Virus genome (UHGV): UHGV-0289908
Direction: 5' to 3' (one strand)
DNA from: a virus
Length of the DNA: 64,000 nt
Notes under the pieces: generated by a model
What the model saw: only the letters and a program-made list of their open reading frames with translations
Told to the model about the DNA's origin: nothing
Databases searched by the model: none
Part shown: one piece after another, positions 3,233-61,550 of the stretch
Layout of the letters: each line of letters opens with the position of its first letter
Numbering within the stretch: position 1 is the stretch's first letter
Made by a program: the position numbers and the translations under genes

Positions 3233-3911
3233 ATCGAGATTCCCCGCCTAGTTCATCTTCATCTACATGACCACCTAATACGATTACATAAAATGGGATA
3301 GTCATCCCCATGTATCCAGATGTTCCAACACGTAAATCGGTCACATCTCCTGCAAGATGAATAGTACAATCTCCCGTGAACTCTCGTGCCTCTCCCTCAA
3401 CAGATTTTTCATCCAAGAGGTCTACGATTTCGCAGGCGATTGAATTAGCTCGTTCTTCATATAAGCTATCTAATTGGTTGAATTCAATCGGGTAGATAAT
3501 GTCAATGTTAAAGAAGTGTTTTCCAACAATATTGTCTACTCCATAACTTAGTCGTCCACTGACCATGTTTGGATTAAACGTGCTTTTATGACAATGAACA
3601 TAGATACTAACCTGTCTATCAGATAATACCTCACCGCTGAAAGCATAGTCGTATAAAATACGCTTGTCAGCAGTTTCGCTTACATTGTCATTGGTAGTGG
3701 GGAATCTTAAACTGTCTACTAGGTCTGGTTGTTTGACCTTATCCCCATTGTATCCCACCCCTCTATTTAACAAAGGAGTGCGTGTATAGTATCGAGACAG
3801 TCGCTTAATCTTTTGCGAATTATCAATAAGCTCCATCATGTAGAGCTTAAGTGGGACAATTCGTTTCAGTTTCGCACTTTTCTTCCCCATGTATTTGTTA
3901 TTTCCATTCAT
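3225..3911 (-). CDS. hypothetical structural protein
   Basis: 228-aa ORF, overlaps neighbours by a few nt. Confidence 0.5.
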   Translation of the reverse strand: MNGNNKYMGKKSAKLKRIVPLKLYMMELIDNSQKIKRLSRYYTRTPLLNRGVGYNGDKVKQPDLVDSLRFPTTNDNVSETADKRILYDYAFSGEVLSDRQVSIYVHCHKSTFNPNMVSGRLSYGVDNIVGKHFFNIDIIYPIEFNQLDSLYEERANSIACEIVDLLDEKSVEGEAREFTGDCTIHLAGDVTDLRVGTSGYMGMTIPFYVIVLGGHVDEDELGGESRYD

Positions 3912-3921
3912 AAGAATCCCC

Positions 3922-4812
3922 CTAACAAATCATGATATCTTTTTCATATGCGATTCCTGTTTCATCTGTAGCGGTTAAAGTGACCCATCCTCGCTTTGTC
4001 CCTCGCAATTCTACAGAGGTTTCCGTCACAGATGTAGTTGTTGCAATGCTTGAATCATCAACACTCCAAATCACAGGTTTATCTATTGTGTATGTGCGAG
4101 ATTCATGAAGTCTAATTCTCTCGTCTCCAATGATTTCAGAAGGAGTGGCATTTTCAATGGCTTCTTCGTATGCGTTCCATGCAATGTTATTCGCAAAATC
4201 GTCCATAGGCATTGCTTCATCCCTTTGAGCGACACAAGTTAGCATGTTTGGATAAACTAAGTCGTCTAACTCGGTAATCTTGTATATGTATTTATTTGCG
4301 AACATAACACGCTGTCCAATGAACATTTTGTCGGTGACTGCATTGCGTTGAATATAAATCTTAGTCTTAGAGTCCAATTCATAAAATTTGTCTTGGTCTA
4401 AAATACCCTTTGAACCATATGTTGTAGAGTTTGTATAACAAGGAATAGGGTAGTCCACTCCTCGGAAATTCAATTCTCGATTACATAGGTAGCAGTCTGC
4501 TTTTGGCAAAACCACGTCTGTATTTACCTCTTTGACAATGTAGGTCTTGTCATTGTATAAGATGTATGAACCTGTTTTTGCGGTTGTGTTTGGACGTAAT
4601 AAAATATACTTCTGTAATTCGCTAGTCCCACTTCGGACAATAATGTCAATGTCTCTAGGCTCTTCCCCATCCTCTTTTAAAGTTGCGGGGAAGTAACCTT
4701 GAGCCGAAACAAAGTTTCGATTTATTGTTTTCTTTGCGGTTATTTCTCGGGTTGCGTGCACACTGGCTTCGCTCCCCAACATTCTTTTTTTGTAAAGCTC
4801 CAGATAAGACAT
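3922..4812 (-). CDS. structural protein with C-terminal bacterial Ig-like (Big_2-type) domain
   Basis: C-terminal ~80 aa (TTTSVTETSVELRGTKRGWVTLTATDETGIAYEKDIMI) resembles Big_2 beta-sandwich domains common on capsid/tail surface proteins. Confidence 0.5.
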   Translation of the reverse strand: MSYLELYKKRMLGSEASVHATREITAKKTINRNFVSAQGYFPATLKEDGEEPRDIDIIVRSGTSELQKYILLRPNTTAKTGSYILYNDKTYIVKEVNTDVVLPKADCYLCNRELNFRGVDYPIPCYTNSTTYGSKGILDQDKFYELDSKTKIYIQRNAVTDKMFIGQRVMFANKYIYKITELDDLVYPNMLTCVAQRDEAMPMDDFANNIAWNAYEEAIENATPSEIIGDERIRLHESRTYTIDKPVIWSVDDSSIATTTSVTETSVELRGTKRGWVTLTATDETGIAYEKDIMIC

Positions 4813-5234
4813 TACTCCTCATCCTCCTCGGGATATGTAAGAGCATAGTCATAATCCGTAACTAGGTTATTGTACTCAATCTCTGAATCATTTTTTAATG
4901 CACGCATTTCCGCCAATAGTCCAGAGTTACTAAAAGTTGTAGTATCCTTTGACGCAAGCTGAGTCTCCAAAAACTCATAGTTGTAAATCTTAGGTGATAA
5001 CCAGTAAATCATCATTCCATGGGCAAGAATGAGGGCTTCTGTATCATTTAATTCACGAGTAAACTCTTGTGTCTCTTTATCGAACTGTACCTTCTTAATA
5101 ACTCGTGTGCGTGCAAGTACCATTCGAACCTTAATTCCTAACTCCAGTTTAAGTTCATCAAGACTATACTCAATGTACTTTGCTTCTGAAAGAAGGTTAA
5201 GGAACATATCAATGACATCATCAAACGTATTCAT
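4812..5234 (-). CDS. head-tail connector-like small protein (positional)
   Basis: 140-aa ORF coupled (ATGA overlap) to downstream gene. Confidence 0.45.
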   Translation of the reverse strand: MNTFDDVIDMFLNLLSEAKYIEYSLDELKLELGIKVRMVLARTRVIKKVQFDKETQEFTRELNDTEALILAHGMMIYWLSPKIYNYEFLETQLASKDTTTFSNSGLLAEMRALKNDSEIEYNNLVTDYDYALTYPEEDEE

Positions 5235-11088: not shown

Positions 11089-14000
11089 TTATCTAATCTT
11101 AGGGCTAGAGAAGCAGTATAGAGAAGCAATGTTAAAGTCTTCTTCCTCTTCTTTTGCCTTATTTTCGTGTGTCATAATATACCAAATCATATAGACAAGT
11201 GCCGAGTAACGGTCTTTGTCAATCGACTTGGAATTACGTTTTACCGTCAGCTTCCCTCCATTTAGCTGTTCAAGACTTAAGTTAGCTATCTCTTCGATAA
11301 GTAGCTCTGTCTGAACATGAGGGAGCACTGTGCTCTTTAAGAAGTCTTGGTCTGAGTTGGCAACTACGTTCTGGTCTACTTTCTCAAGTAGCTGTAGCGT
11401 TCCATTCTCAACTAAGTTCATAAAGTTAACAATAATGTCAGTATTCAGACCTTGAGCCTGTAAAGCCCAAACACATTTTAATGCTTCTGCTTCGTCTGAC
11501 TCATGTTCTGTATTGATTGTGTCGAACGCAATTAACTCTTCACCTGTTATCGGGTCAATGTGAAGTTTCATTATCTCGTCAAGTAGTCCTACGCCTAATC
11601 CGTTAATATCTATGACAACGGTTACAGCTTTGTATAGCTTCTGTAGTCGCTTAACTGCAATGGCTTGCCCAGTGAAGTTTGTGCCGTTAGGCAGGTTGAC
11701 AATGTTGACAATCTGAATATGATTAACCTTGTCTTTTTTATCTCGTTTAACCTTACCTACTACAATAGAGGTCTGGTTGTTGTTCGTCTTTGTAGAGCGA
11801 GCCACATCGACTCCAATATAGTATTCGCTCTTCCCGTCAGACTTTAGCTCTGCCTTTGGAAGAGTTCGGATGTTGAATAGCTTATTTAAGTCGATGATAC
11901 ATGAGTCGGACGAGCCCACCCAACGGGATTCGTAGTTAGTTGCGAAGAATGTCGGAGATAGTTTCTCCTTCTTGGCAAGTAACTGTGAACGTGTCTCTCC
12001 ACGTCCATACTCGCAGGCAAGCTCCCAAGAGCTACCCAATACAATTTTACCTTTTAACTCTGCCATCTCTTTGACCATTGCTAAACAACGCTCATACTCA
12101 GTGTTCTTGAAGTATGCTGTTGTTAAGAAGTGGATTTGACCATTCATTTCACAAGGGTCTACTTGCGGATTGTAACCAATAGTACGACGAGGTACGTTGA
12201 CGATTGGTTCAAGGGCATCAGAGAAGACGAAGTCGTTAAGTAAGGCAGCCTCTTCCATCATCAAACGATGGCGACGCTTACCCTTACTTGACTGTGCATT
12301 GGCAAGAGTGCTGATAGTACTTCCACTTGTGAAGTGAATCTCGGCATTATCTTTTGAGAATTGTGGCTTACCTACAATCTCCGCTCCGATAAGAGGGAAG
12401 AATCGCACAATCTCACTGTGTTTCTCTTCAACTAATCCTGCGGCTGCTTGCATGGTCTGAGCCGACATAGATAGGTTGATATTTGGATAGAGAATAGCTG
12501 TTACATAGAGTGCTAACAACTCTGTAAATGTATTGTGACTAACTAATCCATTTGACACAAATGAATGAGTGTTGTCTAATGACAAGTCATACACATGAGC
12601 CTTAGAATCTTTAATGGTCTTAATCTTTGAATAGAAGTAATTTTCACACTGCAAAGATTTAAAATGCTCACAGTGTTTTGCTTCATGAAAGCGTTCATGA
12701 TTTAACATTTGGTTTAATTTTTTATAAGTGAATAAACCACCTTTGTTTGCCACTTGATATAGAGGATGACTTGATTTATTAACATTCTCCCCTATTGATT
12801 CATAGAACTCTCTAATCTTAGACTGCTGATTTGGAATAATGTCTTTTATGGTTCTTCCTTGATACTCTTTGCAGCGTTGTTCTAACAATTCTTGTTTTCT
12901 TTGACAAGAGAATCCTATTTCATCTCTGAATTTTAGTATGTTACTTCCCGTGATGGTAATAATGTAAGATTTCGTTTGATACTGTTTGCTTATCTTTGTT
13001 CGTCTGTTTGAAATAATTCCCAAGTTCAACAATAGTGTTTGAACCTGTTTAGACATTTTTTCAGAAGCTGTGCAGAATGAAACAGCTCTGCTCTCCACTC
13101 CACCGTCTGTATCAAATAATCCTTGCAAACATTTCACCACATATTTTTTCGGTGCTTCTAAAATAATGTTGGGGATAACCTTGGTAAAGGCATCTGACTG
13201 CGACAAACCAAGTTGTCTAAAGTATTCACGAACATATTTGCCGTTGACGACATAATCTATGCCTGTTTTACGCTGTTTAACCTCTACTCCTATGACATTG
13301 TTCATAAAAGAGTGGTAGCGTTCCACCATATCTTGGTCTTTTGATGTAAAGAGGATGATGTTATCTCTTGTCAAGCAGCCATCTCCTAAAAGATAGCCAA
13401 TTATCAGAGCTAAGTCCTCAGTTAATTCCGTCGGAGTGTTGCATTTGTTTTTTTCAATTTTCCATTTAGAGTCTCCACCAAAAGAATTTAACCACGAGTG
13501 CATATCAAAAGTCAATTTGGTTCTGCTACCCCAAACATTATCTCCTCGGCTTGTGATTAAATAATCTCCGACATGTAAATCCTCTGTTCGTTTCCAGTCA
13601 ATATTTCCATCTGTTGTCATAACTAGCACGGGGTGGTTTAACGAAGGTTCAATTTCAATACCTTCCTCGGTATATATTTTCTTTGTGTCCTTATATCCAC
13701 TATACACCCCTGCAATGACATTCTCCATCTGTTTATGACGATTGCTCACTGTCATTTGTTTAGGAATTATGTATGTTTCAACATTATCATCTTGATAATT
13801 AAAGTACGACCCAATCTCTTTAACTCCCTCGTTTGTTAAAATTAATGTATCGCCAGATACACATTTTCCATATCCACGTGGGAATACCCCGTAGACAGAA
13901 GCGAAACGGACTAGAACACGAATGAACACTCGTTGGTCTAAGTCGAGTCGGATACCCCCTGTCTCGGGCGTAATTAGGTCGAGAAAGAGGTCGGGGAAAA

Positions 14001-14139
14001 AGCGAGCCCACGAAATGAACTCTACCCATTTATCTAAATTCTGTTGAAATTTATCTCCATCTGGGTTAGAATAATATGGTATCCCAGTTTTTGGATTGAT
14101 TACTTTTTCAATAATCTGCTTGGCTTCTTCTTTATTCAT
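11089..14139 (-). CDS. terL: terminase large subunit containing an in-frame intein
   Basis: Extein reads ...FPRGYGK|TFTELLALY... giving Walker-A GYGKT once residues 93-536 are removed; C-terminal nuclease-like region present. Confidence 0.85.
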   Translation of the reverse strand: MNKEEAKQIIEKVINPKTGIPYYSNPDGDKFQQNLDKWVEFISWARFFPDLFLDLITPETGGIRLDLDQRVFIRVLVRFASVYGVFPRGYGKCVSGDTLILTNEGVKEIGSYFNYQDDNVETYIIPKQMTVSNRHKQMENVIAGVYSGYKDTKKIYTEEGIEIEPSLNHPVLVMTTDGNIDWKRTEDLHVGDYLITSRGDNVWGSRTKLTFDMHSWLNSFGGDSKWKIEKNKCNTPTELTEDLALIIGYLLGDGCLTRDNIILFTSKDQDMVERYHSFMNNVIGVEVKQRKTGIDYVVNGKYVREYFRQLGLSQSDAFTKVIPNIILEAPKKYVVKCLQGLFDTDGGVESRAVSFCTASEKMSKQVQTLLLNLGIISNRRTKISKQYQTKSYIITITGSNILKFRDEIGFSCQRKQELLEQRCKEYQGRTIKDIIPNQQSKIREFYESIGENVNKSSHPLYQVANKGGLFTYKKLNQMLNHERFHEAKHCEHFKSLQCENYFYSKIKTIKDSKAHVYDLSLDNTHSFVSNGLVSHNTFTELLALYVTAILYPNINLSMSAQTMQAAAGLVEEKHSEIVRFFPLIGAEIVGKPQFSKDNAEIHFTSGSTISTLANAQSSKGKRRHRLMMEEAALLNDFVFSDALEPIVNVPRRTIGYNPQVDPCEMNGQIHFLTTAYFKNTEYERCLAMVKEMAELKGKIVLGSSWELACEYGRGETRSQLLAKKEKLSPTFFATNYESRWVGSSDSCIIDLNKLFNIRTLPKAELKSDGKSEYYIGVDVARSTKTNNNQTSIVVGKVKRDKKDKVNHIQIVNIVNLPNGTNFTGQAIAVKRLQKLYKAVTVVIDINGLGVGLLDEIMKLHIDPITGEELIAFDTINTEHESDEAEALKCVWALQAQGLNTDIIVNFMNLVENGTLQLLEKVDQNVVANSDQDFLKSTVLPHVQTELLIEEIANLSLEQLNGGKLTVKRNSKSIDKDRYSALVYMIWYIMTHENKAKEEEEDFNIASLYCFSSPKIR
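12532..13863 (-). mobile_element. intein (444 aa) with LAGLIDADG homing-endonuclease domain inserted in terminase P-loop
   Basis: Starts with Cys (CVSGDTLIL), ends with His-Asn followed by Thr; internal LAGLIDADG-like motif IGYLLGDGCL. Confidence 0.75.
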
Positions 14140-51489: not shown

Positions 51490-51921
51490 ATGGAAAGCAA
51501 GCAAATCGAAGTAATGTCAAAAGGGCAATTTGAATTGTTAGGAAAAGCAGAGCAAGTTCGCTTAATGGAACTTTGGAGACAACAGCATACCAACAAAGAA
51601 ATCTTTGAAGCAATGGGATACACTTCTCACCAGTTCTACAAAATAATTAATAGGCTAGGGGTTAAGGCAAAAGATAACGCTCCATCCGCTACAAAACTTC
51701 GAACAGAAGACGATTTAGAAACAAAGTCGGTCGAAACAGGAACTCCCACAATGGAGCGGGTTCTTGAACTCGCTTCAAATGAATCACAAGACACAAAAAC
51801 AATCAGTATCTCTGTTTCTGATACTGTTGATAAAGAAGGGGCGACGGCTCTATTCCAAAGCATACTATCATTCCTATCAACTGGTGGGGAATACAACGTA
51901 ACAATCGAGGTATCAAAATAA
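51490..51921 (+). CDS. putative HTH DNA-binding protein (regulator)
   Basis: 143 aa; N-terminal HTH-like KEIFEAMGYTSHQFYKIINRLGV shared with 52320 ORF product. Confidence 0.5.
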   Translation: MESKQIEVMSKGQFELLGKAEQVRLMELWRQQHTNKEIFEAMGYTSHQFYKIINRLGVKAKDNAPSATKLRTEDDLETKSVETGTPTMERVLELASNESQDTKTISISVSDTVDKEGATALFQSILSFLSTGGEYNVTIEVSK

Positions 51922-52319: not shown

Positions 52320-52934
52320 ATGGAAAACATCGAGAGAATGATTAGTAGTGACATTAAGACTATGAAAAGGATTGGTCATAATGTTAAACGTCAAAAAGGG
52401 AAAAGAGGTCTAGGCACAGGGAATTTTGACCCATTGCGTGGCATGACTCAACGACAAATTGCGAAACTACATGGAGAGACGAAGGTGTACGATATGACAA
52501 AAATTTTAAACAAAGATGAATTCAATAAATTAGATGAAACAATGAAGAAAATCCATTTAGAATCTTGGCGAGCACGATTCTCTACAGAAGAGATTGTTCA
52601 AGGAATGGGGATTGCGTCTCCAACCTATTATAAATACTGTAGGAAGCTAGGGGTTACAGGAGGAGATGCACCTCGCAAGAACATGAAACGCAATCCAAAA
52701 AAACAAGGAGATGAGAAAGTGGCGACCATTATTGATTTACCAGTAAAGGAAGAGGTTGTAGAACAATCAGCAACAGTCACTCCAATGGAAGAGATTTCAA
52801 CTAAGAAGGTATCAGCATTACTTACTTTAGACGAAACAGTGAGTGGGGAGAAATTAGCGGCTCGATTACGAGCAATCGCAGAACTTGTCAACGACGACGA
52901 AACATATACTATCAACATGACTCTTGAGCGTTAA
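52320..52934 (+). CDS. putative DNA-binding regulator with two HTH-like segments
   Basis: 204 aa; TQRQIAKLHG and EEIVQGMGIASPTYYKYCRKLGV; second is paralogous to 51490 product. Confidence 0.5.
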   Translation: MENIERMISSDIKTMKRIGHNVKRQKGKRGLGTGNFDPLRGMTQRQIAKLHGETKVYDMTKILNKDEFNKLDETMKKIHLESWRARFSTEEIVQGMGIASPTYYKYCRKLGVTGGDAPRKNMKRNPKKQGDEKVATIIDLPVKEEVVEQSATVTPMEEISTKKVSALLTLDETVSGEKLAARLRAIAELVNDDETYTINMTLER

Positions 52935-52948
52935 AATAAGTATGAATT

Positions 52949-52996
52949 AAAAGAGCTTACGATTAACGTAGGCTCTTTTGGTTTGGGTTTATTTTA
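52949..52996. terminator. bidirectional rho-independent terminator between convergent operons
   Basis: AAGAGCTTACGattaaCGTAGGCTCTT stem followed by TTTTGGTTTGGGTTTATTTT. Confidence 0.55.
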
Positions 52997-55322
52997 ACTT
53001 AAAGAACTTGTCTTGCAAGTGTACAACAAATTCAAATTTTTCATTATCATAGGTGGTGGTCACAAGAGCATGTCGAGGTTTGAGTTCCTTGATTTCATCC
53101 CATGAGAAGCTCACGAGGTCGTCTTCAATACTCTTAACTGCTTCTCGCTTAACCCCACTTAAGATAAATAGATTCAGACCCGAGCTGTTAATACTAGACA
53201 AGGCATGTTGGAACTGATTTAAGTTATGACATGCAAATAAAGTTGATAGTCGGTGTCGTCTAAATTGAGTGATGTATTTAGCAAGGAAGTCGCTAGTATT
53301 TGGAATCATTTTCACCTCATCTAGCAACAAGTGAGTGAGCTTTAATTGACTGCCTTTTCGGGTCTGACATGTGAGCCACAACTTGGTACAGAAGAATGTG
53401 GTAAGAATATCCCGAACACAATCATCTGTAAACTCTGTTTGTGGAATTTGGATAAACACAATCTTGTTCTCATCAATGTATCTATTAAAGTCAATAGAGT
53501 TATCAACAGGGGAACTAAAGAATTCAATCAAGCGTAGGTCTAAAGACTGAATCCCTGCAAAGCGATTCATGATTCCTTTAATATCCGACATGCGAGTACT
53601 TGACTCCCCTTTGTCATCTTTTGTGAGATACAATAGGTTTTTAATATCTACATGGTCTTCACTATAGATATTGTTTGCGATTGCCTTGGAAACATACATA
53701 CTTCTTATGTCGCAATCTTCTAAACAATAATAAACATCCATGATGGTCGCTTGAGGGGTGGTAGCGAATACCACTCGGCAAGCAGAAGATAAATATTTTA
53801 ACATTTGACTGGAAAGCGGTTCTGTAGCTCCAAAGGTGACTCCATTTAATAGTTCACATAATTGAGCAGAAATGAAGTTAGCCCCCTTTAATCTATCTCT
53901 AGGGTTCTTGCTTTCAAGCAATGGGCGAACCTCATTATATCCCAATCCTAAGATGTTGTCACTTTCAGAGTAGTTATGAAGATTGATTACCTCAACACGA
54001 CTTCTATCAAGATACGGTAATACCTCATTGGTTAGCTCGCAATCTTGAACATAATCAATGACTATAAGAGGTTGACCGAGTTTGTAAACTTCGTAAATGT
54101 AATTTTGCATAAAGGTGGTTTTCCCTCCACCTTGGGTACAGACCAGAGCCTTTGATTGAGCAAGGTCATCATTCTTGGAACTAAAGCTCACGGGAACTTC
54201 TTGTCCTCCTCGATTATATAATCCCATTTTTAAATACTCATCAAATGCCTGTTGAGGTAAATCCGTTTGAGTATTTGCAATGGCTTTTAACTGCTTGTAC
54301 TGTCGTTGCATGGTTTTATTTGGAAGCGTTACCATTTGTTGAATCTCTTTTGTATTCAATACCTGTGGGAACAGGAAGCTATAGCGACCCATTTCACGTT
54401 TAATTTTGATAACGGGAGTCATATCTGTTGGTTTAAGAGCATTGTCCCCGTCTAGGGTTCTGAATGCTACAATTAAACTATTCAGATTCTCACGTCTTCG
54501 GATATCATTTTGACTGTAGCTGAACAACCGAATACGAGTGTTGAATCCTTCATACATGGTTTTGTCCGTCTTGATGGAGTTCGTTCCACGCATAGCATAA
54601 GAATGTTTCTTTTCCTTTTTGACTGGCTCAACATCAAGAATCGCTTCGAAGATATCCTCGATAATTTCAACCACATAATCTATTATATTCTCATAGAACC
54701 ATATATATGCTTTCATCAAAAAGTTTCGACTAGATGTAACGTCTTTTCCTTGACGATAGGCTTCGTATTTGCTATCTGCTGATTCATGCCACCAATTATT
54801 AATTGGCTCAAGTAGGAGTTGAAACAGTAACTTATCGTCCTCCATTAAGCCATGTGTTACATTCAACACAGAGCCTAATGGAGAATGACTACGTCCATCT
54901 GTCAATAATGACATAAAGAAATGATTTTTTAATTCTAGGTCGCAGGTTAGAGAATTATCATTTTCAAAAACATGAATATAGTCCTCAGTTTCTGCGACTC
55001 CAATATTCCCCCAACTATTTTTGACCTTGTTCTGAATAAATGAGTCATATCGAGTTGGGATTGCGAGAGTGAATTTAATCTGCTGTTTACTTAAAAGGAT
55101 TTCATAGGTCGTGACATCTTTTCTGTGACACGACCATTTCATTCCATCTCGCTTGATTCTATCTTTTAAGTCCCGATTAACTTGGTGAAGAGCCTTTACC
55201 AACTCGTCGCTACAGTGAACATTATCTATAGTAGCGTCGGGAATAAGTTGATACAAAGTGTGAGTATCCTTGATTCGTTCAAAGCCTATATTAATAGGTA
55301 GGGCTTTTGGTTGAAGATTCAT
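52989..55322 (-). CDS. 777-aa P-loop NTPase (VirB4/TraC-like size and Walker-A placement), last gene of membrane-protein operon
   Basis: Start MNLQPK after AAGGAGGG RBS (ATGA overlap with upstream gene); Walker A CTQGGGKTT near residue 430; Walker-B-like PLIVIDY. Confidence 0.6.
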   Translation of the reverse strand: MNLQPKALPINIGFERIKDTHTLYQLIPDATIDNVHCSDELVKALHQVNRDLKDRIKRDGMKWSCHRKDVTTYEILLSKQQIKFTLAIPTRYDSFIQNKVKNSWGNIGVAETEDYIHVFENDNSLTCDLELKNHFFMSLLTDGRSHSPLGSVLNVTHGLMEDDKLLFQLLLEPINNWWHESADSKYEAYRQGKDVTSSRNFLMKAYIWFYENIIDYVVEIIEDIFEAILDVEPVKKEKKHSYAMRGTNSIKTDKTMYEGFNTRIRLFSYSQNDIRRRENLNSLIVAFRTLDGDNALKPTDMTPVIKIKREMGRYSFLFPQVLNTKEIQQMVTLPNKTMQRQYKQLKAIANTQTDLPQQAFDEYLKMGLYNRGGQEVPVSFSSKNDDLAQSKALVCTQGGGKTTFMQNYIYEVYKLGQPLIVIDYVQDCELTNEVLPYLDRSRVEVINLHNYSESDNILGLGYNEVRPLLESKNPRDRLKGANFISAQLCELLNGVTFGATEPLSSQMLKYLSSACRVVFATTPQATIMDVYYCLEDCDIRSMYVSKAIANNIYSEDHVDIKNLLYLTKDDKGESSTRMSDIKGIMNRFAGIQSLDLRLIEFFSSPVDNSIDFNRYIDENKIVFIQIPQTEFTDDCVRDILTTFFCTKLWLTCQTRKGSQLKLTHLLLDEVKMIPNTSDFLAKYITQFRRHRLSTLFACHNLNQFQHALSSINSSGLNLFILSGVKREAVKSIEDDLVSFSWDEIKELKPRHALVTTTYDNEKFEFVVHLQDKFFKLK

Positions 55323-55663
55323 ATAATCCCTCCTTGAACGATACAGGCACATATGTATACTATAGCACTAAAATATAATCCTGTAAAGGTTTTTTCGTTG
55401 TCATCTCCAAACATTAGGCGGTAACAATAATATGCAAAGAATGCCACAGAGCCGATGGTGGCAATCTCCACAGCTCCTGCGAGCAACATGTCAAGTAATC
55501 GGTTTAAGAAGTTCATTAATGCGTCACTGATAGCGTCTCCAACTGCTTGGATAACTTCGGATATTTGTTGAGCTACCCAACCTTTGCTAGCCCCTTCGTC
55601 TGCAATATTGGTAAGAACGACAGGGACACTTTTTATTAATTGTCCGTTCACTTTAACTATCAT
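55319..55663 (-). CDS. membrane protein (two C-terminal TM helices)
   Basis: 114 aa; ATGA coupling at both ends. Confidence 0.55.
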   Translation of the reverse strand: MIVKVNGQLIKSVPVVLTNIADEGASKGWVAQQISEVIQAVGDAISDALMNFLNRLLDMLLAGAVEIATIGSVAFFAYYCYRLMFGDDNEKTFTGLYFSAIVYICACIVQGGII

Positions 55664-56163
55664 AATACCCCTCCAATCATATGGATGACATTTTGAGCCA
55701 CCTCTACTGCCCCAGTGACAGCACCTTCCATTAATCCCTCTTTCACAGATTCTACATAAGTCTCAATAAAGTACATAATTCCATCTAAAGCAATTAGTAA
55801 AGTATATCCCATGGCAACATCCTTAAATTGTCGAATAGCTCCTTTGGGGTCTCCTCCGCACATGCGATAGATAGCTTTTGCTCCATTTACATAAAAGATG
55901 ATACGTCCTGCATCAAATAGGATAGGAAGAAGGACGGGGGATAATTTGTCCCATAGTCCAACCCCTCCTGTCATATTCATAACTGTAAATCCAGTTGCTA
56001 TGGCAACAGGAACAGCAGAACACTTCATTTTCAATGCGACAGGTTTCGACAAATCTTTTTCAAAGAGAACTGGAACATTTACAATTTCAACCTCAGCTTG
56101 TTTCCCCATTTCAATTCTATGTGTTGAGTAGTTTTCAGTTAAGTTTAAAACATTATTAATCAT
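55660..56163 (-). CDS. polytopic membrane protein
   Basis: ~167 aa from MINNVLNL after AAGGGGGA RBS; several hydrophobic segments. Confidence 0.55.
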   Translation of the reverse strand: MINNVLNLTENYSTHRIEMGKQAEVEIVNVPVLFEKDLSKPVALKMKCSAVPVAIATGFTVMNMTGGVGLWDKLSPVLLPILFDAGRIIFYVNGAKAIYRMCGGDPKGAIRQFKDVAMGYTLLIALDGIMYFIETYVESVKEGLMEGAVTGAVEVAQNVIHMIGGVL

Positions 56164-56176
56164 TTTCATTTCCCCC

Positions 56177-56278
56177 TTATTTACGTTTTTTACTTTTCTT
56201 ATAAGCCACAACTGCCCCAGTTAATAAAGCCAATGAAACTGTAGACCCGATTCTAAATAATAAAGCAACTTCAAACAT
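56177..56278 (-). CDS. 33-aa single-TM peptide
   Basis: MFEVALLFRIGSTVSLALLTGAVVAYKKSKKRK after AAAGGAGGGAGA RBS. Confidence 0.45.
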   Translation of the reverse strand: MFEVALLFRIGSTVSLALLTGAVVAYKKSKKRK

Positions 56279-56280
56279 GA

Positions 56281-56397
56281 TTATCTCCCTCCTTTACGAA
56301 TTTTATATTTAACTTGAGAAGCAATACTCCCTGTTAAACCAAGACCAACAATAACAATCATGTCTCTGACGATATTCATAGCCAAATATTCTAACAT
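56281..56397 (-). CDS. 38-aa single-TM peptide
   Basis: MLEYLAMNIVRDMIVIVGLGLTGSIASQVKYKIRKGGR after CAGGGGGA RBS; stop overlaps RBS of next peptide. Confidence 0.45.
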   Translation of the reverse strand: MLEYLAMNIVRDMIVIVGLGLTGSIASQVKYKIRKGGR

Positions 56398-56564
56398 TTT
56401 TTAATTCCCCCTGTATAATATTTTCGAAACCGTCCATAATACTACTGTAATCAAACGAAAGGAGTGAACAACTATGGCATATCTTGGGCTAGGTATTTTA
56501 TGGGCATTAGAAGCCGTTGAATGGGTAAACTTTTTTGCTCGATTCTAAGATTTTTTGCAAATTT

Positions 56565-56593
56565 TTTGAAAATGGCATATTTCGGGCATGCCC
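56565..56593. promoter_or_regulatory. GC-rich palindromic operator candidate between divergent operons
   Basis: GCATATT-TCGGGCATGCCCGA-GCATATGC: 14-bp perfect palindrome flanked by GCATAT(GC) elements. Confidence 0.5.
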
Positions 56594-56837
56594 GAGCATA
56601 TGCTTTAGCAAAGCGTAACGCATGTAAGCGTCAGCTAAAAGCGTGTTACCACTTTCCTACCCTACTGGGATTCTTCCTTTGATTTTATAGTATTTGACGG
56701 AGTGTTCATATAATAGCCTGTGTGAACAGGCTAGGTCATGAACGCTTTTGTTTTGTTGCTTAGTACACTATATGTTGCCAACGATATCAATATTCCCAAA
56801 TGAGATAGAAAATATTTTTTCTTTTTACTGGAATTTG

Positions 56838-56907: not shown

Positions 56908-57810
56908 ATGGACTTAATTCAACGTTTTTTGCGAGCTAAGGCTCATTGTTACACAGAAGATACAACAAAAAGCTATCGAGCAGACCTTGAACAATTTTTT
57001 GAGTTTTTGGCTGAACGTCATGAAACAACTGACCAAACAGTGCTTATTAAAAAGGCAGATTACTCAGAATGTTTGGATTATTTATTTTATTTACAAGACC
57101 GCAAGTTATCTGTTTTTACCATCAATAGAAAACTAGGAAGTGTTACGTCATTGTTTAAGTTTTGTGTGGATTTGGGGCTTATTGCAGAAAATCAGATGAA
57201 GAAGGTAGACCGAAACCCCACTAAACACTTAATTCAAGATAACGATTTTTTAACAAAGGACGAATATGATAAATTGTTCTTGGCAATTCAGACACGACAA
57301 GCTAGACAACCAAATTTTGAATTTACAAAGACCCGTGACCTAGCTTTGTTCTCAATGATTATCTCATTAGGATTGCGTATCACAGAAGCTCGAACACTAA
57401 CATATGACCAAATCGACCTCCAAACTGGACGCATTAGATTGGTGCGAAAAGGATTAAAGGCTCAGACACTTAAGCTAACCAGTCATCTTATAGAATTGTT
57501 GAATGAATACCTTGAGCAACGCAAAAAGGTTCACATTACAGAAGGATTAGAGAATCGAATCTTCCTTACTGCAAATGGGAATGAGTTAACAACAAAAGAT
57601 TGCAACCGTGCCTTAGAACGCTACTGCAAACGAGCAGGAATTAAACAAATCAGCAATCATGACCTACGACATACCTGTGCCACAAATCTAGCTTCACGTG
57701 GAGCTTCAATTAATGATATAAAAGAATTATTAGGTCACAAGCAATTAGCAACGACCAGTCGCTACGTTCATGGGGATTCCTCGAATATTGAAGACCTTAT
57801 TGGATTATAA
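56908..57810 (+). CDS. tyrosine recombinase (integrase/Xer-like) with intact catalytic residues
   Basis: GLRITEAR..., KG, HDLRHTCAT, TSRYVHG (R-K-HxxR-Y pattern); 300 aa; AAGGAGG RBS. Confidence 0.8.
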   Translation: MDLIQRFLRAKAHCYTEDTTKSYRADLEQFFEFLAERHETTDQTVLIKKADYSECLDYLFYLQDRKLSVFTINRKLGSVTSLFKFCVDLGLIAENQMKKVDRNPTKHLIQDNDFLTKDEYDKLFLAIQTRQARQPNFEFTKTRDLALFSMIISLGLRITEARTLTYDQIDLQTGRIRLVRKGLKAQTLKLTSHLIELLNEYLEQRKKVHITEGLENRIFLTANGNELTTKDCNRALERYCKRAGIKQISNHDLRHTCATNLASRGASINDIKELLGHKQLATTSRYVHGDSSNIEDLIGL

Positions 57811-57995: not shown

Positions 57996-59234
57996 TTGGA
58001 AAACAGTATATTTGCTACTCTTAATAGCGTGATTGATACTCATAACAGCGAACAAACAGTAGACTACCTCACCAAACATTTTCGTAGTCATGGACTAAAT
58101 AAAGCAACACCAAGCCTTGTATTTGCCAAAATGGTGAGCTTAGACAAATTGTCTCAAACAGAATTAATCTGTCTATCAGAAGGGTTGTATAGTATTACAG
58201 GAATTGAGAAGATTAACCCTAAAAATCTGTTTGAAGGTGAGGAACTAGAGGTATATCATGAATTACAGGAGCAAACGGATTATTACCCAACAACAATAGC
58301 TGCTCAGAGAGCCCTAGATTATAGGGACAAAAAGGTATTAGATTTTTTAAATGAAACATATGGTAATTATAAGACAAAACACACATACTTTTTTATTTAC
58401 GATTCAAAGATAAGACAAGAAGAAAGAGACAATTCAAAACAATTAGGAGATTTTGACGCAGTTGAAATCATCACCCTAATGCAATCCATGAAGGGGAGCT
58501 TAAGCACTCGCAAGAATGCTCTCTCTTTCGTGAAGAAATATATGAAATGGTATTGGAGAGAGAATCCCGAAGAGAATCCTATGTTGGATATCGAGAAGGG
58601 GACACCGCTAGTTCTAGTCAATGACAGCCATTTATCAAGTAAATACATCCCGATGATGGAACTAGAGGAAGAAGCTAAAAAACTGGTCGTGGCAGAAGAC
58701 AACCCTGTATTTCCTATTGATGGAATGATAGCAACTCTTATTCGTCAAGGGTTGACGGCAGAGGAGGTTGCTTCCCTTAGATTTTCAGATTTTAATTATC
58801 AAACAAATACGGTCAAAATAAAAACAAAAACAAGTGGACTCAAGTTGGTCAAGTTGGATTCCCATGTACTGCATTGGGTTAGAGAAACAGAAGAGGACAA
58901 TCGACCCGTGGGTCATCCACCTATTTATCTAAACATAGTAGACGACCATATTATTCGAGTACCGTCCACAACATATGATGAAAAGAAAGCAGTAGAGAAT
59001 ATTAGAAGAAGATTAAGTAAATTTAAAAATGCAGGATACAGACCACTAAGTGAGAACGTGCTCATTATCAGCAAAAAGATTGACCTTCTTGACAATATTG
59101 TGAAAACAAAAGGTGTTGTTACTAAGGATGATTTTATAAGAGTACAAGAGATGTTCGGAAACAAAGGTTCAAGTTGGTTCAAGATTCGCACTGAATATGA
59201 AGCTGTTCGTGGAGCTAAAAACATTAGGTTGTAG
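57996..59234 (+). CDS. recombinase-like protein lacking catalytic residues; candidate MrpR/YopR-type DNA-binding repressor (TTG start)
   Basis: 412 aa; segment GLTAEEVASLRFSDFNYQTNTVKIKTKTSG resembles start of tyrosine-recombinase catalytic domain but no HxxR or Y motifs; AGGAAGGAG RBS. Confidence 0.45.
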   Translation: MENSIFATLNSVIDTHNSEQTVDYLTKHFRSHGLNKATPSLVFAKMVSLDKLSQTELICLSEGLYSITGIEKINPKNLFEGEELEVYHELQEQTDYYPTTIAAQRALDYRDKKVLDFLNETYGNYKTKHTYFFIYDSKIRQEERDNSKQLGDFDAVEIITLMQSMKGSLSTRKNALSFVKKYMKWYWRENPEENPMLDIEKGTPLVLVNDSHLSSKYIPMMELEEEAKKLVVAEDNPVFPIDGMIATLIRQGLTAEEVASLRFSDFNYQTNTVKIKTKTSGLKLVKLDSHVLHWVRETEEDNRPVGHPPIYLNIVDDHIIRVPSTTYDEKKAVENIRRRLSKFKNAGYRPLSENVLIISKKIDLLDNIVKTKGVVTKDDFIRVQEMFGNKGSSWFKIRTEYEAVRGAKNIRL

Positions 59235-59260: not shown

Positions 59261-59290
59261 CCACCTCTATCATGAGGTGGTTTTTATTTT
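59261..59290 (+). terminator. rho-independent terminator
   Basis: CCACCTCtatcatgaGAGGTGG followed by TTTTTATTTT. Confidence 0.65.
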
Positions 59291-59564
59291 ATTTAAAATT
59301 CGACAAATTTCAACATTTTTCTCTTGCATTAAGCAAAGCACATATGGTAAGATAATAAACGTGGAAGCGAGAAGTATAAATTTCAATCCCCCTAGTCTCG
59401 CTTCCACCTCTCCTAACCCCATATATCTGTTTCAACAACTGCTCGAACAAGAGCAAGCAGATATGTACTCTCTTTTATTTTCCCATGGCAACTACTCATC
59501 CTCGTTCTTGCGGTTGTCATGGGATTCTTTTCTCATATTACAATCTCCCCTATTTCAACTCATT

Positions 59565-59595
59565 TTAAAAAAGGGCAACCCGTTACCAGTTGCCC
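59565..59595 (-). terminator. rho-independent terminator after ParR-like gene
   Basis: GGGCAACtggtaacggGTTGCCC then TTTTTT on minus strand. Confidence 0.55.
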
Positions 59596-59846
59596 CAGTT
59601 ATTATTAGAATGGGGAATCTTGTTCGATGTAACAGGAACTGATTCTCCATTTACTATAATGTTGTTTAAGCTATCAACATTAACATTAATATTCTCTTCC
59701 CCCAAAAAGGTTTCGACAGCGAGCAGAATGAATCCCCGCAGATTCATTCTCTTGCTCTTAGAAACCTTTTTTATTGCGTCATAGAGGGCTTTGTCATCTT
59801 CATAGAAAACAAGCGGATGAGTCTTGTAAATCTCTTGTTTAGCCAT
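59583..59846 (-). CDS. parR: ParR-like small DNA-binding adaptor (RHH-like)
   Basis: 87 aa immediately downstream of and coupled to ParM-like gene (ATGA overlap). Confidence 0.45.
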   Translation of the reverse strand: MAKQEIYKTHPLVFYEDDKALYDAIKKVSKSKRMNLRGFILLAVETFLGEENINVNVDSLNNIIVNGESVPVTSNKIPHSNNNWGNW

Positions 59847-60805
59847 TATTTTGCCCCCTTATGTAAACCAAATTTAAAATATCCACGAGCATTACCTGTT
59901 TGAGCATGAGGATGAACCTTAATGTTTTCTGCAACAGGTAAATGCCCATCTAAGGCTTTTGAGCCCCCTCCTGTATAAATAACCCTATCAGCCATTTTAA
60001 AACTGATTCCAGAATCATTAATGAAGGTCATAATCTGTTTATGAATTTCCTCTTTAGCCACGGCTAAGTGCTTAGAGAAGTCAAAAGTCTGTTCGTATTT
60101 ATTAATTTTTGATTGGTTGTTTACCCCAATATCCTCAAGAGTGAATCGGAAATCACGACCTGCATAATCTTGATTGATATATTGGAGATACAGATTAGAT
60201 ATATCCATACAACCAATATCTGCTCCGATTAGGGTTTCAGCGGTCATTCCATCACTAAGTAGAATATCTGTTGTTCCTCGCCCGATATCAATTACCAAAT
60301 ACTTGTATTCGTTGCGTCCATTGATAACTTGCAAATTGCCGTCAAACATAAAGTCAATGAGTGTTCCAAGTGGTTGAGGAATCACATGCACTTCTACAAC
60401 CTTAATATCATGTTTTGTTTCTCCTTTGTAAATGGTATGGTTACCAAGTAATCTAGACTTCGTCTGAGCAATCAGAGCGGGGTCGTTGTAATCTTCACAT
60501 GGCAGTCCCGTTGTTAAGATTACATTCTTCTCTTTTTGTACCCGAGATATTGCAACTAGATTTTCAATAAGGAACTCTTTCGTGGTGTATCTCTTCATAT
60601 TGCGACCACCCGAAGTACTTCCTTTATTGGATAGCACATATCGTTCTCCCATGTAAGTATATTCTGTCTCTTGTGTCTTACCTCCAAGTAATGCCATTTC
60701 ACGACCATGGCGACGCAAAAGTCGATTCTCATATGTATCCACCTTTGCATTTGTAACTGTTTTTGTGAAGCCATTAGCGGCTTCTAGCCCTATGATTTGA
60801 GTCAT
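59846..60805 (-). CDS. parM: ParM/StbA-like actin-family partition ATPase
   Basis: 319 aa; phosphate-2 motif YLVIDIGRGTTD and N-terminal IGLEAANGFTK typical of actin-like ParM proteins. Confidence 0.7.
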   Translation of the reverse strand: MTQIIGLEAANGFTKTVTNAKVDTYENRLLRRHGREMALLGGKTQETEYTYMGERYVLSNKGSTSGGRNMKRYTTKEFLIENLVAISRVQKEKNVILTTGLPCEDYNDPALIAQTKSRLLGNHTIYKGETKHDIKVVEVHVIPQPLGTLIDFMFDGNLQVINGRNEYKYLVIDIGRGTTDILLSDGMTAETLIGADIGCMDISNLYLQYINQDYAGRDFRFTLEDIGVNNQSKINKYEQTFDFSKHLAVAKEEIHKQIMTFINDSGISFKMADRVIYTGGGSKALDGHLPVAENIKVHPHAQTGNARGYFKFGLHKGAK

Positions 60806-61163: not shown

Positions 61164-61550
61164 ATGAATGAACAAGCAAAAGAGATTAAGATTTTACGAG
61201 GACAAATCCACATGGTTGATTTTGGGAACGTGGATGAATATAGTGGAAGTTTACAAAGAGGTAAGCGACCTGCAATCGTCATCACAAATGATACGGGATG
61301 TCGTTTTAGTCCCATTATTTCTGTAATCCCCCTAACAACCCAAAAGACGAAACGCAATCTTCCAACGCACTGTCATATTAAAAGAGATGAAACAAACAGA
61401 TTGTTAAAAGATTCAATAGCACTAACGGAACAGGTAGTAACAGTGAATCGTTTCCAAATTGGCGAACGAACAGGAAAACTATCTCCTAAAGATATGCAAC
61501 GAGTGGCGAACTGTTTAGGAGTGTCTGTGGGTTTATCCCTCGCAGTGTAG
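61164..61550 (+). CDS. MazF/PemK-family endoribonuclease toxin
   Basis: ILRGQIHMVDFGNVDEYSGSLQRGKRPAIVITNDTGCRFSPIISVIPLTTQ matches the PemK signature (G-ihhh-hDF-Gse-GkrRPalVis). Confidence 0.7.
   Translation: MNEQAKEIKILRGQIHMVDFGNVDEYSGSLQRGKRPAIVITNDTGCRFSPIISVIPLTTQKTKRNLPTHCHIKRDETNRLLKDSIALTEQVVTVNRFQIGERTGKLSPKDMQRVANCLGVSVGLSLAV

Follow-up and report, generated by a model that had tools for sequence, protein, structure and literature searches.

A gut-phage operon with a predicted VirB4-family ATPase and a probable pilin is a divergent member of a known phage and plasmid gene module

Gene blocks related to the locus studied here have been described before in tailed phages. Pathria et al. 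(2012) named orf200-207 of phage 0305phi8-36 a 'DNA translocation operon' and pointed out its counterpart in SPO1 (gp27.3-gp29.1); the parts were read as a relaxase, a VirD4/TraG-like translocase, a VirB6-like protein and an MreB-like protein (PMC3357382). In 2022 a block consisting of gp11-18 and followed by a XerD-type recombinase gene was reported for the Tyroviruses, which are Tsamsa/Thrax-type Bacillus siphoviruses of 160-170 kb. This block encodes ParM, a ParG-like ribbon-helix-helix (RHH) protein, a 'type IV secretion system protein' and a replication-relaxation protein; it was termed plasmid-like, and both an origin from a conjugative plasmid and a contribution to a plasmid-prophage state were considered possible (PMC9703825). 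Outside phages, the archaeal Ced/Ted systems move DNA with a set composed of a pilin (CedA1/TedC), a VirB6-like protein (CedA/TedA) and a VirB4-like protein (CedB/TedB) (PMC9905601), and ParM of R1 binds the VirB4-like TraC as well as TraD and TraI and promotes conjugation (PMC4949242). Here we describe a five-gene operon on the minus strand (56397-52989) of a stretch of 64,000 nucleotides from the viral genome UHGV-0289908, which is referred to as the window in the following. An earlier note on this DNA had proposed the operon as a candidate novel accessory system for defence or DNA transfer. The claim of novelty does not hold, as the block had been described in 2012 for 0305phi8-36 and SPO1 (PMC3357382) and in 2022 for the Tyroviruses (PMC9703825). 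The window operon is a new divergent gut-phage member of this known phage and plasmid module, and neither a defence island nor a moron.

The operon encodes four small membrane proteins and an ATPase of 777 amino acids (aa) and has the following features.

56281..56397, minus strand: p38, encoded first in the operon, membrane micro-protein of 38 aa with a single pass and a basic tail at its C-terminus (open reading frame and ribosome-binding site, one hydrophobic segment)
56177..56278, minus strand: p33, 33-aa single-pass membrane micro-protein with a KKSKKRK tail (open reading frame and ribosome-binding site, hydropathy, conservation)
55660..56163, minus strand: p167, candidate TrbC/VirB2-like pilin (topology, nine homologues, weak hhalign similarity)
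55319..55663, minus strand: p114, small protein with two C-terminal transmembrane helices in the position of VirB3 (ATGA coupling, hydropathy, homologues)
52989..55322, minus strand: ATPase, 777 aa, predicted to belong to the VirB4 family (Pfam DUF8128, phrog_5156)
52943..52985, no strand: hairpin with a 19-bp stem between the convergent ATPase gene and a 204-aa helix-turn-helix gene, probable bidirectional terminator

The 777-aa protein is, according to structure modelling, a divergent and soluble ATPase of the VirB4 family. A VirB4-type N-terminal domain, the part which touches VirB3 and the membrane, is predicted for residues ~20-375, and a RecA-like C-terminal ATPase domain of the VirB4/VirD4/HerA clade for residues ~380-770. 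The Walker A motif (GGGKTT) is intact and located at residues 398-403 instead of about residue 430, where it had first been placed; Walker B (D668-E669) is intact as well. A Foldseek search with the predicted structure, which had been suggested as a check on the fold, returned TrwK/VirB4 chains for all of the top 14 matches (E 2e-5 to 5e-3), and the next match followed at 0.04. Using two structure-comparison methods, VirB4 was the sole match of the N-terminal 375 residues. The predicted C-terminal domain scored best with the VirB4 C-terminal domain of T. pseudethanolicus (26.8), followed by the C-domain of DndH (26.5), TrwB and HerA (24.3 each) and DotL (21.4); this comparison of models places the ATPase within the clade without singling out a particular member. 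Structure prediction of both domains agrees with the resemblance to VirB4/TraC which the earlier note had proposed. At the sequence level the ATPase matches phrog_5156 (function unknown) from end to end (E 2e-110) and carries the precomputed Pfam label DUF8128. An exhaustive search (E <= 1e-3) assembled a family of 437 clusters at 50% identity, nearly all of them full-length.

Inspection of open reading frames and ribosome-binding sites confirmed the five co-directional genes, and separate gene calls on three independent metagenome contigs gave the identical set of 38, 33, 167, 114 and 777 aa. The existence and order of the coupled operon therefore stand as the earlier note had described them, except that ATGA overlaps link two junctions (p167/p114 and p114/ATPase) and not three; between p33 and p167 there is a gap of 13 nt. 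The ribosome-binding site of p33, AAGGAGGGAG, is situated within the 3' end of p38, and the stop codon of p38 is located 2 nt ahead of the ATG of p33. For p167 the ATG at 56163 has the best-spaced ribosome-binding site and the ATG at 56169 is an alternative, whereas the TTG at 56211 given in the list of open reading frames is unlikely. The ATPase was assigned to the ATG at 55322 rather than to the start at 55352 (787 aa) because the ribosome-binding site GGAGGG precedes the former. A hydropathy analysis indicated one transmembrane segment each in p38 and p33, two each in p167 and p114 and none in the ATPase.

All five genes are kept in relatives with an ATPase identity of 59-69%. These are the contigs L007 (66%), L019 (59%) and L020 (69%), which have a matching set of small genes upstream of the ATPase gene, including homologues of p38 and p33 at the same position. 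A protein search with the ATPase yielded 12 close homologues with identities of 56-100%, every one of metagenomic origin. The comparison of p33 with its L007 homologue revealed 17 identical codons, 13 with synonymous changes only and 3 with amino-acid changes, and the conserved pattern is R-I/V-G/A-STVSLA-x-LT-...-YKK. The p38 protein is more variable than p33, with length, hydrophobic core and basic tail retained. The five open reading frames are real genes and not chance products, and the ATPase gene is co-transcribed and translationally coupled with four conserved genes for small membrane proteins.

The third gene product, p167, is probably a TrbC/VirB2-like pilin, judged from its sequence. 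It consists of a leader of ~65 aa followed by two hydrophobic helices, which are linked by a short loop with basic residues, and its nine homologues share a long invariant core. Neither p167 of the window nor the L007 homologue matches Pfam TrbC (PF04956) or T4SS_pilin (PF18895). A comparison of the p167 family with the pilin-like proteins of other modules using hhalign aligned the same core with P values of 9e-5 (probability 59%) and 6e-4 (29%). The equivalents in some of these modules do match pilin models. On plasmid pCLK of C. botulinum the ATPase gene overlaps the 3' end of a 133-aa gene annotated as 'TrbC/VirB2 family protein', the product of which scores 28.5 bits with Pfam TrbC (gathering threshold 27.9). 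Gp49 of the B. subtilis phage 055SW001, the equivalent of p167, matches TrbC with E 6.5e-6 (26.7 bits) and T4SS_pilin with 3e-5; weaker T4SS_pilin matches were obtained for the equivalents in CP-51, 0305phi8-36 and SPO1. One protein of 116-171 aa with pilin-like size and layout is present in all modules examined. Most of these proteins have a long leader with a signal-peptide-like end and a mature core of hydrophobic segments with a short basic loop; a simple hydropathy scan resolved two hydrophobic segments in only some of them.

The p114 protein would take the place of VirB3. It has a soluble N-terminus of ~55 aa and two C-terminal helices, its gene is coupled to the ATPase gene by an ATGA overlap, and homologues are present in L006, L007, L019 and L020. 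Position, coupling and topology fit VirB3, and p114 may bind the ATPase; a match to Pfam VirB3 was not obtained. Directly upstream of the ATPase gene all modules examined encode a small transmembrane protein, except pCLK and 055SW001, in which the pilin-like protein occupies this position. Two hydrophobic segments were resolved in four of the upstream proteins (TPDSL_ph2, L007, the C. tetani plasmid and pCBI). A kinship of p114 with the 120-aa protein of PJN02 was rejected, as the common stretch is limited to the N-terminal MIVK(V/I)NG. Single-pass micro-peptides of 34-50 aa also recur (SPO1 gp27.6/gp27.7, CP-51 gp93/gp94, Stahl, PJN02 and 0305phi8-36 orf202); no sequence similarity to p38 or p33 was detectable in them. 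The suggestion that the upstream genes follow a VirB2/VirB3-like order fits the topology and position of the proteins and the TrbC matches of the equivalents in other modules.

TrbC pilins are processed by LepB/TraF. Genes for signal peptidase I (LepB/Peptidase_S26) were observed near the module on the C. beijerinckii plasmid p1 (L012, 6738-7253) and on L019 (20234-20349).

The surroundings of the operon in the window contain the following genes.

59846..60805, minus strand: ParM/Alp-type actin-like partition ATPase (phrog_691 'partition protein' 7.5e-39; ParM NF010498 4e-26; Pfam ALP_N/MreB-like_C)
59583..59846, minus strand: probable 87-aa RHH adaptor, ParR/ParG-like, after the actin gene (gene call and sequence inspection)
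57996..59234, plus strand: MrpR-like tyrosine recombinase (Pfam MrpR_N_CB 6e-5; precomputed MrpR_N_CB/MrpR_C_cat matches)
56908..57810, plus strand: XerC/D-like tyrosine recombinase (Pfam Phage_integrase 1.4e-34; XerC and XerD models 1e-48 and 8e-46, both below the cut-offs)
56474..56548, plus strand: divergent micro-open reading frame (MAYLGLGILWALEAVEWVNFFARF) for a hydrophobic 24-aa peptide with a strong ribosome-binding site, 77 nt upstream of p38

Ancestrally the block forms one unit with the genes for the ParM-like actin, which comes first, and the small adaptor. In L007 (4795-8004), L019 (6416-9001) and L020 (6571-9028) the actin gene and a small gene are located immediately upstream of p38 on the same strand. 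In the window the actin/adaptor pair (60805-59583) has the orientation of the operon and is parted from p38 by the two plus-strand recombinase genes. Since the ParM pair abuts the operon in the three relatives, the recombinase genes seem to have been inserted into a block that was originally uninterrupted. This arrangement was found only in the window lineage, and in L007 recombinases are located downstream of the ATPase gene, which suggests that the recombinase cassette has moved. More generally, a Xer-type or integrase gene adjoins the module in PJN02, Stahl, D6E, TPDSL_ph2, the Tyroviruses and the window. The actin of the window is homologous to SPO1 gp27.9 (E 2.5e-10) and to the actin of 0305phi8-36 (E 6e-6). 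The 87-aa adaptor has no Pfam match and was assigned to the RHH proteins by inspection only; it occupies the position of the ParG-like protein in PJN02 and the Tyroviruses. An assignment of the two recombinases to a gamma-mobile-trio was rejected (GmtY 23 bits, cut-off 340), and a 121-aa open reading frame with a GTG start (59277-59642, plus strand) was judged spurious, as the conserved gene for the 87-aa RHH protein on the other strand overlaps with it.

The order actin, small protein, pilin-like protein with micro-transmembrane peptides and ATPase is found in SPO1 (gp29.1, 27.9, 27.8, 27.7, 27.6, 27.5, 27.4), CP-51 (gp97-gp91) and 0305phi8-36 (orf207-201), and the actin-to-ATPase order, from partition protein through ATPase, also in PJN02 and D6E. 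In TPDSL_ph2, Stahl and 055SW001 the module lacks the actin gene. Directly downstream of the ATPase gene, SPO1, CP-51, 0305phi8-36 and PJN02 have a replication-relaxation ('nicking') gene, and none is detectable in the window.

Many phages and plasmids of endospore-forming Firmicutes carry the module. In a phage collection the window ATPase matched phages of Bacillus (78), Geobacillus (3), Terrisporobacter (1), Brevibacillus (1) and Clostridium (1) and Deep-sea thermophilic phage D6E (2). With SPO1 gp27.4 as query, the matches were Bacillus 133, Geobacillus 5, D6E 2, Lysinibacillus 2 and one each for Alicyclobacillus, Brevibacillus, Clostridium and Microcystis. A tblastn search of plasmids with the window ATPase gave 52 records (Clostridium 32, Bacillus 19, Halococcus 1). 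Apart from one Microcystis phage and one Halococcus plasmid record, nearly all homologues belong to phages or plasmids of endospore formers. No matches were obtained in the phage collection for phages of Staphylococcus, Listeria, Enterococcus, Lactococcus and Streptococcus, which are heavily sampled. Relatives of SPO1 within the Herelleviridae infect several of these genera. Genes for Spo0E-like sporulation regulators were seen a few kb from the ATPase gene on the C. beijerinckii plasmid p1 (L012) and on pCBI (L018).

The backbone of the phage is also distantly related to the Tsamsa/Sundance group, as its portal protein shares 33-36% identity with the portals of large siphoviruses that infect spore formers (Tsamsa, Skywalker, Brevibacillus Sundance and Alicyclobacillus KKP_3916). 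Besides the portal, the window encodes terminase, exonuclease and tRNA genes. Contigs from human-gut metagenomes, the longest of 154,609 bp, encode the identical ATPase; close relatives were found neither in the GTDB species genomes nor in IMG/VR, and the phage collection contained no match at the DNA level. The ParM gene, the Xer-like and MrpR-like recombinases and, near ParM, a gene for a PemK/MazF-type toxin (61164-61550, plus strand) give the region a plasmid-maintenance flavour, and the phage may therefore be a phage-plasmid. Intergenic repeats are restricted to short families at chance level, with no clear centromere-like iteron array.

Upstream of p38, the divergent 24-aa peptide is kept in L007, L019 and L020 with synonymous changes; it lies under the 25-aa limit of the list of open reading frames and possibly represents a sixth component or a regulator. 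Just downstream of it a perfect GC-rich palindrome of 14 bp, TCGGGCATGCCCGA, is located at 56582-56595, beside an AT-rich imperfect palindrome (56550-56573). The earlier note had regarded a palindrome at this site as a candidate operator. The GC-rich palindrome is present and scores as a weak terminator-like hairpin, but it is absent from L007, the relative with 66% identity, and from L008; because it is not conserved, the operator role is unsupported.

Some further genes were noticed. Two paralogous proteins of 143 and 204 aa (51490-51921 and 52320-52934, both plus strand; BLASTP E 1e-10, 27% identity) show a weak helix-turn-helix signal and are encoded convergently to the ATPase gene. In the minus-strand open reading frame of 1016 aa at 11089-14139 the matches to terminase large subunit are split and interleaved with other PHROG families, as would be expected of an intein or an inserted domain. 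The early region of the window encodes an ArdA antirestriction domain (32235-32795, plus strand; Pfam 29.9 bits, threshold 27); ArdA typically occurs in the leading regions of conjugative elements. In L019 the ParM gene is preceded, at a distance of ~3 kb, by a gene for a second ATPase of 609 aa (3300-5129; DUF87/AAA_10, HerA/VirB4 clade), and a primase-like gene (DnaG/DUF3854) is located downstream.

Taken as a whole, these results make us quite confident that the module is centred on a VirB4-type ATPase and derived from a type IV secretion system (T4SS). On balance we favour the view that the operon of the window derives, in reduced form and carried by a phage, from a type IV secretion or conjugation machine; that phage DNA is its substrate is a more tentative proposal, which we regard as possible but doubtful. 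Several observations weigh against this interpretation. Nothing scored above any curated threshold when the five operon proteins were compared with Pfam, NCBIfam and PADLOC; in particular, no VirB4 model (Pfam CagE_TrbE_VirB / AAA_10, NCBIfam) reaches threshold on the ATPase of the window, nor does a sequence model of any other T4SS component on the window proteins. The Foldseek TM-scores between the ATPase and TrwK are low (0.35-0.40), and the pilin label of p167 depends on a weak profile similarity (hhalign 29-59%) and on topology. Among the mating-pair-formation partners the pilin-like and the two-helix protein are present, but the 64-kb window, part of a genome of ~150 kb, revealed neither a polytopic VirB6-like nor a VirB8-like protein and no coupling protein or relaxase. 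The VirB6-like channel protein is considered missing because no window protein with four or more transmembrane segments was found. A tblastn search of the window with SPO1 gp27.3 and 0305phi8-36 orf200 gave nothing better than E 0.6, and Pfam scans of candidate open reading frames of the window detected no relaxase or replication-relaxation gene. Furthermore, deletion of the region in 0305phi8-36 caused no detectable growth defect in the laboratory (PMC3357382), and conjugative pili are considered absent from monoderm bacteria (PMC9905601).

Three other explanations were weighed, and all of them rank below the T4SS-derived module. According to the interpretation argued in PMC3357382, the ATPase is a coupling protein of the VirD4/TraG/TrwB type or an FtsK-like DNA pump with separate membrane anchors, belonging to a relaxase-coupled 'DNA translocation operon'. 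The sub-threshold Pfam matches of the ATPase (AAA_14, and TrwB_AAD_bind with E 0.056), the 27 bits scored with the VirD4-like CD1115 model of NCBIfam (cut-off 250) and a weak TraD match point in this direction, as do the TrwB_AAD_bind matches of 13 of the 49 family members (AAA_10 was matched by 1 of 49) and the replication-relaxation gene directly downstream in SPO1, CP-51, 0305phi8-36 and PJN02. The ATPase, however, has no transmembrane segment and does not pass the models for type IV coupling proteins, its N-terminal part matches VirB4 alone, VirB4 is also the best match of the C-terminal domain, and a homologue of the relaxase or replication-relaxation protein was not found in the window. 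Because the membrane anchor is lacking and the N-terminal domain is of the VirB4 type, we do not regard the ATPase as a coupling protein and consider a DNA pump of this kind unlikely. A structure which acts without DNA transport, such as a surface filament or a membrane assembly for aggregation, biofilm formation or lysogenic conversion, has a similarly low probability in our view. It is consistent with the pilin-like protein being the most consistently present partner, with the missing coupling protein and relaxase in the window and with the signal peptidase I genes near the module on the C. beijerinckii plasmid and L019, but the operon contains neither an adhesin nor a cell-wall hydrolase, and the tight and recurrent linkage to ParM/RHH partition genes, often together with nicking and Xer genes, points to DNA.

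That the operon is a moron for anti-phage defence, as the earlier note had considered, or for superinfection exclusion appears very improbable. The ATPase has a weak PADLOC match to mad8 (E 3e-7), membrane proteins are encoded next to it, recombinases adjoin the operon and the PemK/MazF toxin gene is ~5 kb away. This mad8 match is the sole one in PADLOC, and the similarity to mad8/DptH is limited to the common ATPase fold; no complete known system was detected by PADLOC, and the four membrane proteins have no matches there. SPO1 and CP-51 are virulent phages, and the synteny with ParM is held in both of them and in distantly related siphoviruses; because of this constancy the block is unlike a variable island. 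The position in a moron or defence island between lysogeny genes and integrase, which had been assumed, is also not borne out: in three related lineages the operon directly follows the ParM-like actin and RHH pair, and the neighbouring recombinases are Xer-like and MrpR-like and resemble an insertion between this pair and the operon. The remark that no phage structural or replication role is apparent holds true, as no role in the virion or at the replication fork is evident.

For the favoured T4SS-derived module the following mechanism can be envisaged. A hexamer of the ATPase would dock on the inner face of the membrane via p114, which would act like VirB3, and would spend ATP to extract and assemble p167 once its long leader is removed. 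Together with p38 and p33, p167 may form a membrane conduit or a short filament, and the ParM filament with its adaptor would bring phage DNA to this membrane site. The most likely purpose would be to handle the phage genome as a plasmid-like replicon, which is positioned at the membrane or translocated across it; virion assembly and anti-phage defence are less likely. The restriction of the homologues to endospore formers motivates a more speculative idea, namely a virion-independent delivery of DNA which is specific to these bacteria. ParM would carry the phage or plasmid genome to a minimal pilin/VirB4 conduit across a membrane, and the destination could be the forespore, so that spores would carry the genome, or an adjacent cell of a chain or biofilm. 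We consider this idea rather improbable.

This conserved and probably conjugation-derived machine of tailed phages, some of them virulent, has gone more than ten years without an established function. Within the literature searched we found no publication that reads the ATPase as VirB4-type or notices the pilin, no functional experiment beyond the deletion of 2012 and no mention in full texts under 'DUF8128'. The main addition of this analysis is the reclassification of the ATPase as VirB4-type, and not as a coupling protein, together with the recognition of a pilin-like partner. It shifts the focus to pilin processing and assembly, the formation of a membrane conduit and the delivery of DNA guided by ParM; the contribution of the window itself is mainly a further member of the family, from an uncultured human-gut phage of ~150 kb. 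If phage DNA moves without virions or enters spores, phages would have a new way to persist and spread in Bacillus, Clostridium and gut Firmicutes, and if the reading is true it would also be evidence that single-membrane bacteria use VirB2-like pilins.

Compared with known systems, the operon differs from the defence ATPases of the HerA/FtsK clade (DndH/DptH and mad8 of MADS): the N-terminal domain of its ATPase is predicted to be VirB4-type, and the partners are small membrane proteins and the ParM pair, with no other defence components. From a conjugative T4SS it is distinguished by the lack of VirB6, VirB8, VirB10, VirB11, VirD4, relaxase and cell-wall hydrolase and by its location in a tailed phage. 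The proteins of the window fall outside the sequence models of VirB4, VirB3 and VirB2, but the operon resembles the VirB2/VirB3/VirB4 core, as represented by TrwL/TrwM/TrwK of R388, in the order pilin-like protein, small two-helix protein and ATPase and in the combination of a soluble ATPase with a small membrane partner, and both predicted ATPase domains match VirB4 structures. The Ced/Ted systems are chromosomal, import DNA between cells and contain a polytopic VirB6-like channel protein, whereas none was found in the window; similarity to them at the sequence level is not expected. Like them, the operon would be a minimal T4SS derivative with a VirB4-like ATPase, a VirB2-like pilin and two-helix membrane proteins, and with neither relaxase nor coupling protein.

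Among other phages, the Tyroviruses (block gp11-gp19) share ParM, the ParG-like RHH protein, small proteins, the 'type IV secretion system protein' and a subsequent Xer-type recombinase with the window; the ATPase identity is only ~21-23%, and the window lacks the replication-relaxation gene. This gene (the 'relaxase') and the VirB6-like polytopic protein encoded by orf203 also distinguish 0305phi8-36 from the window, and in contrast to 0305phi8-36 and SPO1 the actin pair and the operon of the window are parted by two inserted recombinase genes. The reading of 2012 differs from ours in that the ATPase was taken as a VirD4/TraG-type coupling protein and the pilin was not recognised (PMC3357382). 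In spite of these differences, the ATPase of the window is homologous to SPO1 gp27.4 (E 2e-45) and 0305phi8-36 orf201 (E 5e-18), and the actin is homologous as well. Like the 'DNA translocation' or plasmid-like blocks of these phages, the window combines the ATPase with a ParM-like actin, an adaptor and small transmembrane proteins, and the order of actin, small protein, pilin-like protein with micro-transmembrane peptides and ATPase is retained.

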